Origin: Escherichia coli
GTDB taxonomy: Bacteria > Pseudomonadota > Gammaproteobacteria > Enterobacterales > Enterobacteriaceae
Strand: one strand, 5' to 3'
NCBI RefSeq assembly: GCF_003334305.1
Contig: NZ_QOWS01000013.1
Length of the DNA stretch: 64,000 bases
A model generated the notes under the pieces. The model did no database searches. It had not been told where the DNA came from and saw only the letters and a list, made by a program, of their open reading frames with translations. Numbering within the stretch: position 1 is the stretch's first letter; the number at the start of each line of letters is the position of its first letter. Shown here piece after piece: positions 3,758-3,797 of the stretch. Both the position numbers and the translations under genes were made by a program.

Positions 3758-3774
3758 TAAACAAAACCTAAACA
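3758..3774 (-). promoter_or_regulatory. Putative PhoP box (TGTTTA-N5-TGTTTA direct repeat) upstream of yrbL
   Basis: Minus strand reads TGTTTAggtttTGTTTA, a perfect match to the PhoP direct-repeat consensus, about 50 bp upstream of the yrbL start. Confidence 0.5.
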
Positions 3775-3780
3775 ATGCCT

Positions 3781-3797
3781 CTTAAGGTTTTCTTAAG
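3781..3797. promoter_or_regulatory. Putative PmrA/BasR-type box (CTTAAG-N5-CTTAAG)
   Basis: Direct hexamer repeat cttaag-gtttt-cttaag seen in the yrbL upstream region; resembles the PmrA box consensus CTTAAT-N5-CTTAAT. Confidence 0.4.

Follow-up and report, generated by a model that had tools for sequence, protein, structure and literature searches.

Paired PhoP and PmrA/BasR boxes upstream of Escherichia coli yrbL very probably mark an already characterised two-input promoter

The two adjacent direct repeats at positions 3758 to 3797 of the E. coli DNA analysed here (a stretch of 64 kb, hereafter the window) very probably belong to the promoter of yrbL, a two-input promoter that has already been characterised, with PhoP turning it on and PmrA/BasR turning it down. 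The repeats are real and the initial annotation read them correctly, yet the observation is a rediscovery of an experimentally dissected and already known promoter. The proposal that yrbL is under dual two-component control is borne out by the literature (PMC2681069, PMC3335776, PMC4196223, PMC4145685, PMC5775216). It is refined in two respects at the level of the promoter: the PmrA input is negative rather than a second activation, and the canonical extended PmrA motif is carried by the other strand than yrbL.

The open reading frames of the first 8 kb, together with the RefSeq annotation, give the gene order arcB-elbB-mtgA-yrbL-npr-rapZ-ptsN-hpf-rpoN-lptB. More specifically, the yrbL coding sequence (3075-3707, minus strand, supported by both the ORF and RefSeq) begins with an ATG at 3707 and comprises 210 amino acids plus a stop codon that ends at 3075. 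The npr gene lies upstream on the same minus strand, with its stop codon at 3921-3923. The 226 bases between the npr stop and the yrbL start are 100% identical to those of K-12 MG1655, so that published results obtained in K-12 transfer directly, and the npr-yrbL stretch is present in all complete E. coli genomes searched (5,426/5,426). Two further features of the locus were recorded at the gene ends. A perfect palindrome, TGATGAAGATTAATCTTCATCA, with a 9-bp stem lies across the npr stop at 3912-3933, with the TAA stop in its loop and a left arm encoding the C-terminal D-E-D; since no T-run follows it on either strand, it is not the classical terminator of the rpoN operon. At the other end, mtgA (plus strand, ending at 3078) and yrbL (minus strand, ending at 3075) are convergent, their 3' ends overlapping by 4 nt, and the pair has been named an 'excludon' candidate (PMC12288877).

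The PhoP box, TGTTTAggtttTGTTTA, is found on the minus strand at 3758-3774, oriented directly with respect to yrbL. The perfect match proposed at this place proved base-exact, the minus strand reading TGTTTA-ggttt-TGTTTA from 3774 to 3758. In the 64-kb window the pattern KGTTTA-N5-KGTTTA has 1 exact match, at this site, where 0.03 are expected, and any match at all was found in 3 of 100 shuffled windows. Inside the box lies a -35-like TAGGTT (3770-3765); a spacer of 18 nt leads from it to the -10 hexamer CATACT (3741-3746, minus strand). The distance from the box to this hexamer is 11 nt (3757-3747), within the 11-12 nt expected of a PhoP-activated class II promoter of architecture I. The direct orientation of the box and its overlap with the -35 region, likewise expected there, are both present. 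The yrbL transcription start is projected to lie at approximately 3734-3739 (minus strand): the value of ~3739 is obtained by placing the S1-mapped 32-nt leader of Salmonella on the alignment, and ~3734 follows from the usual spacing of 5-9 nt after a -10 hexamer. Numbered from this projected start, the PhoP box would extend from about -19 to -35, with the PmrA box at about -42 to -61. The S1-mapped Salmonella start is itself unusual in its position, merely 2 nt past the -10 hexamer (PMC3335776).

A scan of 3500-4100 for sigma-70 promoters and terminators returned no match on either strand, as one would expect of a promoter that depends on an activator and has a poor -35. Searching 3000-4300 against Rfam identified no family, the sole match being a meaningless snoRNA at E = 0.54. 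A hairpin in the leader, formed by CUGGAGAU and AUUUCCAG, was considered as a conserved structure and rejected, as RNAalifold gave none and pairing amounted to 66% against 65% in shuffles. The Shine-Dalgarno sequence of yrbL, AGGAG, is found at 3713-3717 on the minus strand, and the surrounding TTCCAGGAG is kept in most orthologues in the alignment. It overlaps a Dcm site, CCAGG (3715-3719, minus strand), the two together forming CCAGGAG; most orthologues keep CCAGG, and a preprint lists yrbL among the five most significantly up-regulated genes in a dcm deletion (PMC11741368).

Published work has shown that PhoP activates the yrbL orthologues of Salmonella and Shigella, and activation has also been reported in E. 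coli. In Shigella flexneri, the yrbL box tTGTTTAggtttTGTTTAa is identical to the PhoP box of the window, the fragment that carries it shifts with phosphorylated PhoP, and deletion of phoPQ leaves yrbL at 0.02-fold, i.e., a 50-fold drop (PMC5775216). In Salmonella, the yrbL PhoP box TCGTTTAGGTTTTGTTTAA has been footprinted and the promoter mapped by S1 (PMC3335776); the box of the window differs from it by one base. The Salmonella enterica promoter is orthologous and belongs to the class II "architecture I", with a single direct PhoP box as here (PMC3335776). It has in common with E. coli the 11 nt to the -10 hexamer CATACT, the -35-like TAGGTT and the 18-nt spacer, as well as a leader of about 32 nt and a PmrA box ~24 bp upstream. 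Differences are confined to details of the boxes: the first PhoP half-site is CGTTTA in S. Typhimurium versus TGTTTA in the window, and S. diarizonae and S. arizonae have ATTTA as the second PhoP half-site and TTTAAGGTTTTCTTAAT as the PmrA box.

The neighbouring repeat, originally described as resembling a PmrA/BasR box at 3781-3797, was also confirmed to the base and reads CTTAAG-GTTTT-CTTAAG on the plus strand. This core (CTTAAGgttttCTTAAG, CTTAAG-N5-CTTAAG) is embedded in a longer element: according to the repeat finder the true repeat unit is the 10-mer TCTTAAGGTT, found on the plus strand at 3780-3789 and 3791-3800, and the PmrA/BasR box as a whole (3780-3800, plus strand) reads TCTTAAGGTT-t-TCTTAAGGTT. 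Because CTTAAG is palindromic, the hexamer pattern matches on both strands; the extended motif has a direction and points away from yrbL. Counting both strands, 3781-3797 is the sole match to YTTAAK-N5-YTTAAK in the 64-kb window, with 0.13 expected. A PmrA box has been defined as a first half CTTAAG and a second half xTTAA(T/G) separated by a 5-bp spacer and bound head-to-tail (PMC3973317), and the yrbL box has the two hexamers, the 5-bp spacer and the head-to-tail arrangement of this definition.

For comparison with validated BasR sites, the arnB/ais and eptA/pmrR regions of K-12 were scanned. The arnB promoter carries CTTAAGGTTAAGTTAAT, followed after 10 nt by TAAAAT, the pmrR promoter CTTAAGGTTCACTTAAT, followed after 10 nt by CATACT (the same -10 hexamer as that of yrbL), and the eptA promoter CTTAAGGTTGGCTTAAT, followed after 11-13 nt by a -10-like hexamer. 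All three boxes contain CTTAAGGTT, as does the yrbL box, and the recognition sequence, CTTAAGGTT-nn-(C/G)TTAAT/G with an 11-bp period, is the same at arnB, eptA, pmrR and yrbL. The difference is in the layout. In the activated K-12 promoters the motif CTTAAGGTT-nn-NTTAAT runs in the direction of transcription and stops 10-13 nt short of the -10, as in class II activation. At yrbL, by contrast, the extended box is inverted, 34 nt separate its end (3780) from the downstream -10 (3746), the PhoP box stands between the two, and repression is reported. An inverted PmrA box upstream of an activator site is not an activation geometry and fits the published repression. Judged by motif and layout, yrbL thus has a genuine PmrA box, but one whose geometry is non-activating, and not a PmrA-activated promoter.

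Both inputs are documented in the literature. The yrbL promoters of E. coli and Salmonella are described as having PhoP- and PmrA-binding sites, with regulation by both experimentally verified (PMC2681069). The same paper describes a bi-fan motif of PhoP and PmrA at yrbL with the PmrA box ~24 bp from the PhoP box (PMC2681069), and BasR and PhoP are tabulated as the yrbL regulators elsewhere (PMC4145685). With respect to the sign of the second input, repression of yrbL by PmrA is the published result (Zwir 2005, via PMC3335776, PMC4196223 and PMC2681069), and two of these papers call it direct (PMC3335776, PMC4196223). In iron-adapted E. coli B populations, yrbL was one of the top down-regulated genes each time that basR, eptA and arn were up (PMC13405929). 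The basis for PmrA repression thus consists of papers from the same group that restate Zwir 2005, together with this one unrelated transcriptome.

These data bear on a different reading, in which BasR/PmrA is a second activator and low Mg2+ and high Fe3+ each induce yrbL. It would be in line with a box that is a perfect PmrA consensus and with the fact that most known PmrA targets are activated, and yrbL does go up in extraintestinal pathogenic E. coli (ExPEC) exposed to serum, where BasR and PhoP are given as regulators with no sign attached (PMC4145685). We nevertheless consider it improbable: the box is inverted and has its centre near -50 to -55, further upstream than the PhoP box, while in 3 of 3 activated K-12 promoters examined it is direct and close to the -10; PMC3335776 and PMC4196223 speak of repression; and yrbL falls when the BasR regulon is induced (PMC13405929).

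The arrangement of the two boxes relative to each other and to the gene is as first described. The gap between the repeats is 6 bases (3775-3780), and the distance of 50 to 90 bp upstream of yrbL measures 51-67 and 74-90 nt before the ATG at 3707 for the two repeats. The repeat finder scored the PhoP and PmrA elements as 79% mutually complementary over 19 nt, which makes them a divergent, head-to-head pair. Read along the yrbL strand, the half-sites begin at 3797, 3786, 3774 and 3763, and the resulting spacings of 11, 12 and 11 bp place all four on one face of the helix.

Taken together, the geometry and the published results make the following mode of action very probable. Under low Mg2+ or some antimicrobial peptides, phosphorylated PhoP binds 3758-3774 and activates yrbL in the class II manner. 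In response to Fe3+, Al3+ or mild acid, or to PhoP by way of PmrD, phosphorylated PmrA/BasR binds 3780-3800 and lowers the PhoP-dependent transcription of yrbL. The PhoP and PmrA dimers would sit head-to-head on one helix face. Repression could be exerted by two routes: PmrA may hinder the binding of PhoP, sterically across the 6-bp gap, or the contacts between PhoP and RNA polymerase; or it may occupy the DNA from about -45 to -60 that would otherwise be used by the alpha-CTD.

A close parallel is Salmonella pmrD, which (Kato et al. 2003, via PMC3335776 and PMC2681069) is, like yrbL, activated by PhoP and repressed by PmrA, and in which a PmrA box likewise lies upstream of a class II PhoP box and provides negative feedback on the PhoP-dependent output. 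The two promoters differ in the distance between the boxes, ~38 bp at pmrD versus ~24 bp centre-to-centre, or a 6-bp gap, at yrbL (PMC2681069). In E. coli K-12, the pmrD promoter has a PhoP box and no PmrA-type box at up to 3 mismatches within 200 nt, which leaves yrbL as the clear E. coli example of this architecture.

Next, we assessed the conservation of both boxes. Eighteen YrbL homologues were aligned, 51 loci were retrieved from named genomes, and about 25 enterobacterial loci were aligned at the promoter. Both boxes are found at fixed positions upstream of yrbL orthologues in about 12 enterobacterial genera. The PmrA-type box lies ~90 nt before the ATG, with 0-2 mismatches, in all Enterobacteriaceae that have the npr-yrbL arrangement (among them Escherichia, Citrobacter, Salmonella, Pseudocitrobacter, Siccibacter, Superficieibacter, Pluralibacter, Pseudescherichia and Intestinirhabdus), and the PhoP box sits at about -66. 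Mean conservation is highest at the -10 hexamer (0.94, the most conserved element of the region), followed by a block further upstream at 3814-3833 (0.85), the PhoP box (0.83) and the PmrA box (0.79, a value lowered by a 1-nt misalignment in some rows), with 0.40-0.59 in spacers and flanks; the spacers alone, set against the PhoP box and the -10, score 0.44-0.59. In genera other than Escherichia, ATTTA is frequent as the second PhoP half-site and TTGA is sometimes seen as the first; the PmrA box is almost invariant across genera. Within E. coli, a common allele carries TGTTTAgatttCGTTTA, and the PmrA box is constant in the alleles sampled. As read from the alignment, the PmrA box is conserved at least as strongly as the PhoP box, and in genera with a degenerate PhoP box, PmrA might be the main input of yrbL.

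Such conservation also speaks to a possible objection, namely that both repeats are chance matches devoid of function. Short hexamer repeats do arise randomly, and when one mismatch is allowed a PhoP-like repeat appears in 23 of 100 shuffles of the window. However, exact matches are expected at just 0.03 (PhoP) and 0.13 (PmrA) per window, the sites are adjacent, correctly placed before the -10 and conserved across genera, and published experiments back both (PMC3335776, PMC2681069, PMC5775216, PMC4196223). Conservation and the published binding data refute a chance origin, to which we attach virtually no probability.

Variation at the locus was observed in several genomes. Shimwellia pseudoproteus has a directly oriented PmrA-type box, ATTAAGGTTTCCTTAAG, some 60 nt ahead of the yrbL homology and 9 nt ahead of a TAACAT hexamer; it occupies the place that the PhoP box has in other genera, and no PhoP box was found there. 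This layout looks like that of a PmrA-activated promoter. In Cedecea colo, the PmrA-type box shares the strand of yrbL and has a more upstream position, at ~-125. The regulation of yrbL thus appears to have been rewired in Shimwellia and Cedecea. In E. coli Ecol_AZ161 (NZ_CP019012.1), an IS66-family element with ISEc23-like tnpA, tnpB and transposase is inserted right after the CATAC of the -10 hexamer (window ~3741), and both boxes are kept, now separated from yrbL. More distant homologues of YrbL (30-57% identity) were encountered in Betaproteobacteria (Sutterella/Parasutterella) and Negativicutes (Selenomonadaceae) of the gut, including two copies on one contig in Parasutterella secunda; neither a PhoP nor a PmrA box was found at the homologues of Sutterella, Parasutterella and Selenomonadaceae. 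This distribution suggests that yrbL has spread horizontally among gut bacteria. A YrbL fragment 99% identical to that of E. coli on the 420-bp contig135 (NZ_JUET01000135.1) of 'Tannerella forsythia ATCC 43037' is almost certainly E. coli contamination.

Beyond what the initial annotation mentions, the alignment revealed a third conserved block of 20 bp at 3814-3833 (minus strand), TTGTACATTTTGTGCGCTTT, which reads TTGTACATTTnGTGCGCTTT on the yrbL strand. Its mean conservation of 0.85 compares with 0.40-0.56 in its flanks, and it is unique in the window, where 0.02 occurrences are expected. Over ~25 enterobacterial loci, the distance from this block to the PmrA box is fixed, at 20-21 nt by regular expression and 18 nt from GTGCGC to CCTTAAG, and wherever a genus retains the PmrA box, the block is found ~18 nt ahead of it. 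Its separation from the npr stop is anywhere between 56 and 1264 nt, because in Superficieibacter another gene lies between; the fixed spacing on one side and the variable spacing on the other indicate that the block belongs to the control region of yrbL and not to npr.

We then asked what the third block could be. Hexamers that could make it part of a sigma-70 promoter are missing from both strands, the predicted folding of 3800-3935 is no better than that of shuffles in either direction, the region has no Rfam match, and a literature search for further regulators at yrbL yielded nothing usable. The block was also compared by eye with the patterns of CRP, sigma-54, MlrA, marbox, RstA, OmpR and Fis. 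Its first half weakly resembles OmpR/RstA-type half-sites, and its 15-mer GTACATTTTGTGCGC fits the degenerate Fis pattern GnnYRnnWnnYRnnC. Fis, the sole full fit among these patterns, was nonetheless rejected as an identification: the pattern occurs by chance at ~1 per 512 positions per strand, so the fit is no evidence. A tentative possibility is that the yrbL promoter is a three-input module in which the third block would serve as the operator of a third regulator or as an auxiliary site for repression by PmrA.

The block and the orientation of the PmrA box also enter into another explanation, according to which the main role of the box is in a divergent plus-strand promoter, activated by BasR and producing a non-coding or antisense RNA toward npr, with 3814-3833 as its 5' end and the repression of yrbL as a side effect. 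On the plus strand the box does read CTTAAGGTT-tt-CTTAAG(GTT), in the canonical order of half 1 and half 2, E. albertii and Citrobacter read CTTAAGGTTTTCTTAAT, the third block follows the box at a fixed distance, and cryptic Escherichia clades have TACAGG/TACAGA 10 nt past it. However, there is no conserved -10-like hexamer 10-13 nt past the box; the sequence of the window there is AAGTGA, 10 nt past it, in a spacer that is the least conserved part of the region (0.56). Moreover, neither strand of 3500-4100 has a promoter- or terminator-like match, the structure of the plus-strand RNA is no better than that of shuffles (z = -0.37), no Rfam match or plus-strand ORF was found, and conservation ends beyond the third block. 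A divergent promoter is therefore a very unlikely explanation.

The initial annotation called the yrbL product a protein of unknown function; it is now annotated as a protein-kinase-like domain protein. The protein (window 3078-3707) belongs to the NCBIfam equivalog NF007671 (E = 5e-120), and Pfam PF10707 was found on all YrbL homologues. Against the PDB, matches were weak (best E = 0.0013) and every one was a protein kinase. Three invariant residues (K30, N135 and D152) together with the motif LKPQN are reminiscent of the kinase elements VAIK, catalytic loop and DFG, whereas the position of the catalytic Asp (HRD) is not kept in the homologues, which have the consensus TMxLKPQN. Because this catalytic position is not conserved, the comparison suggests that YrbL is an atypical kinase or a pseudokinase.

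The experiments proposed for the two repeats, gel shifts and expression in mutants, are largely published already, and the practical value of confirming the yrbL promoter lies in the correct annotation of the region. The promoter is a textbook-style convergence of two two-component systems, with a bi-fan/feedback motif as in Salmonella pmrD. What the comparative data add at yrbL is the third block, which travels with both boxes.
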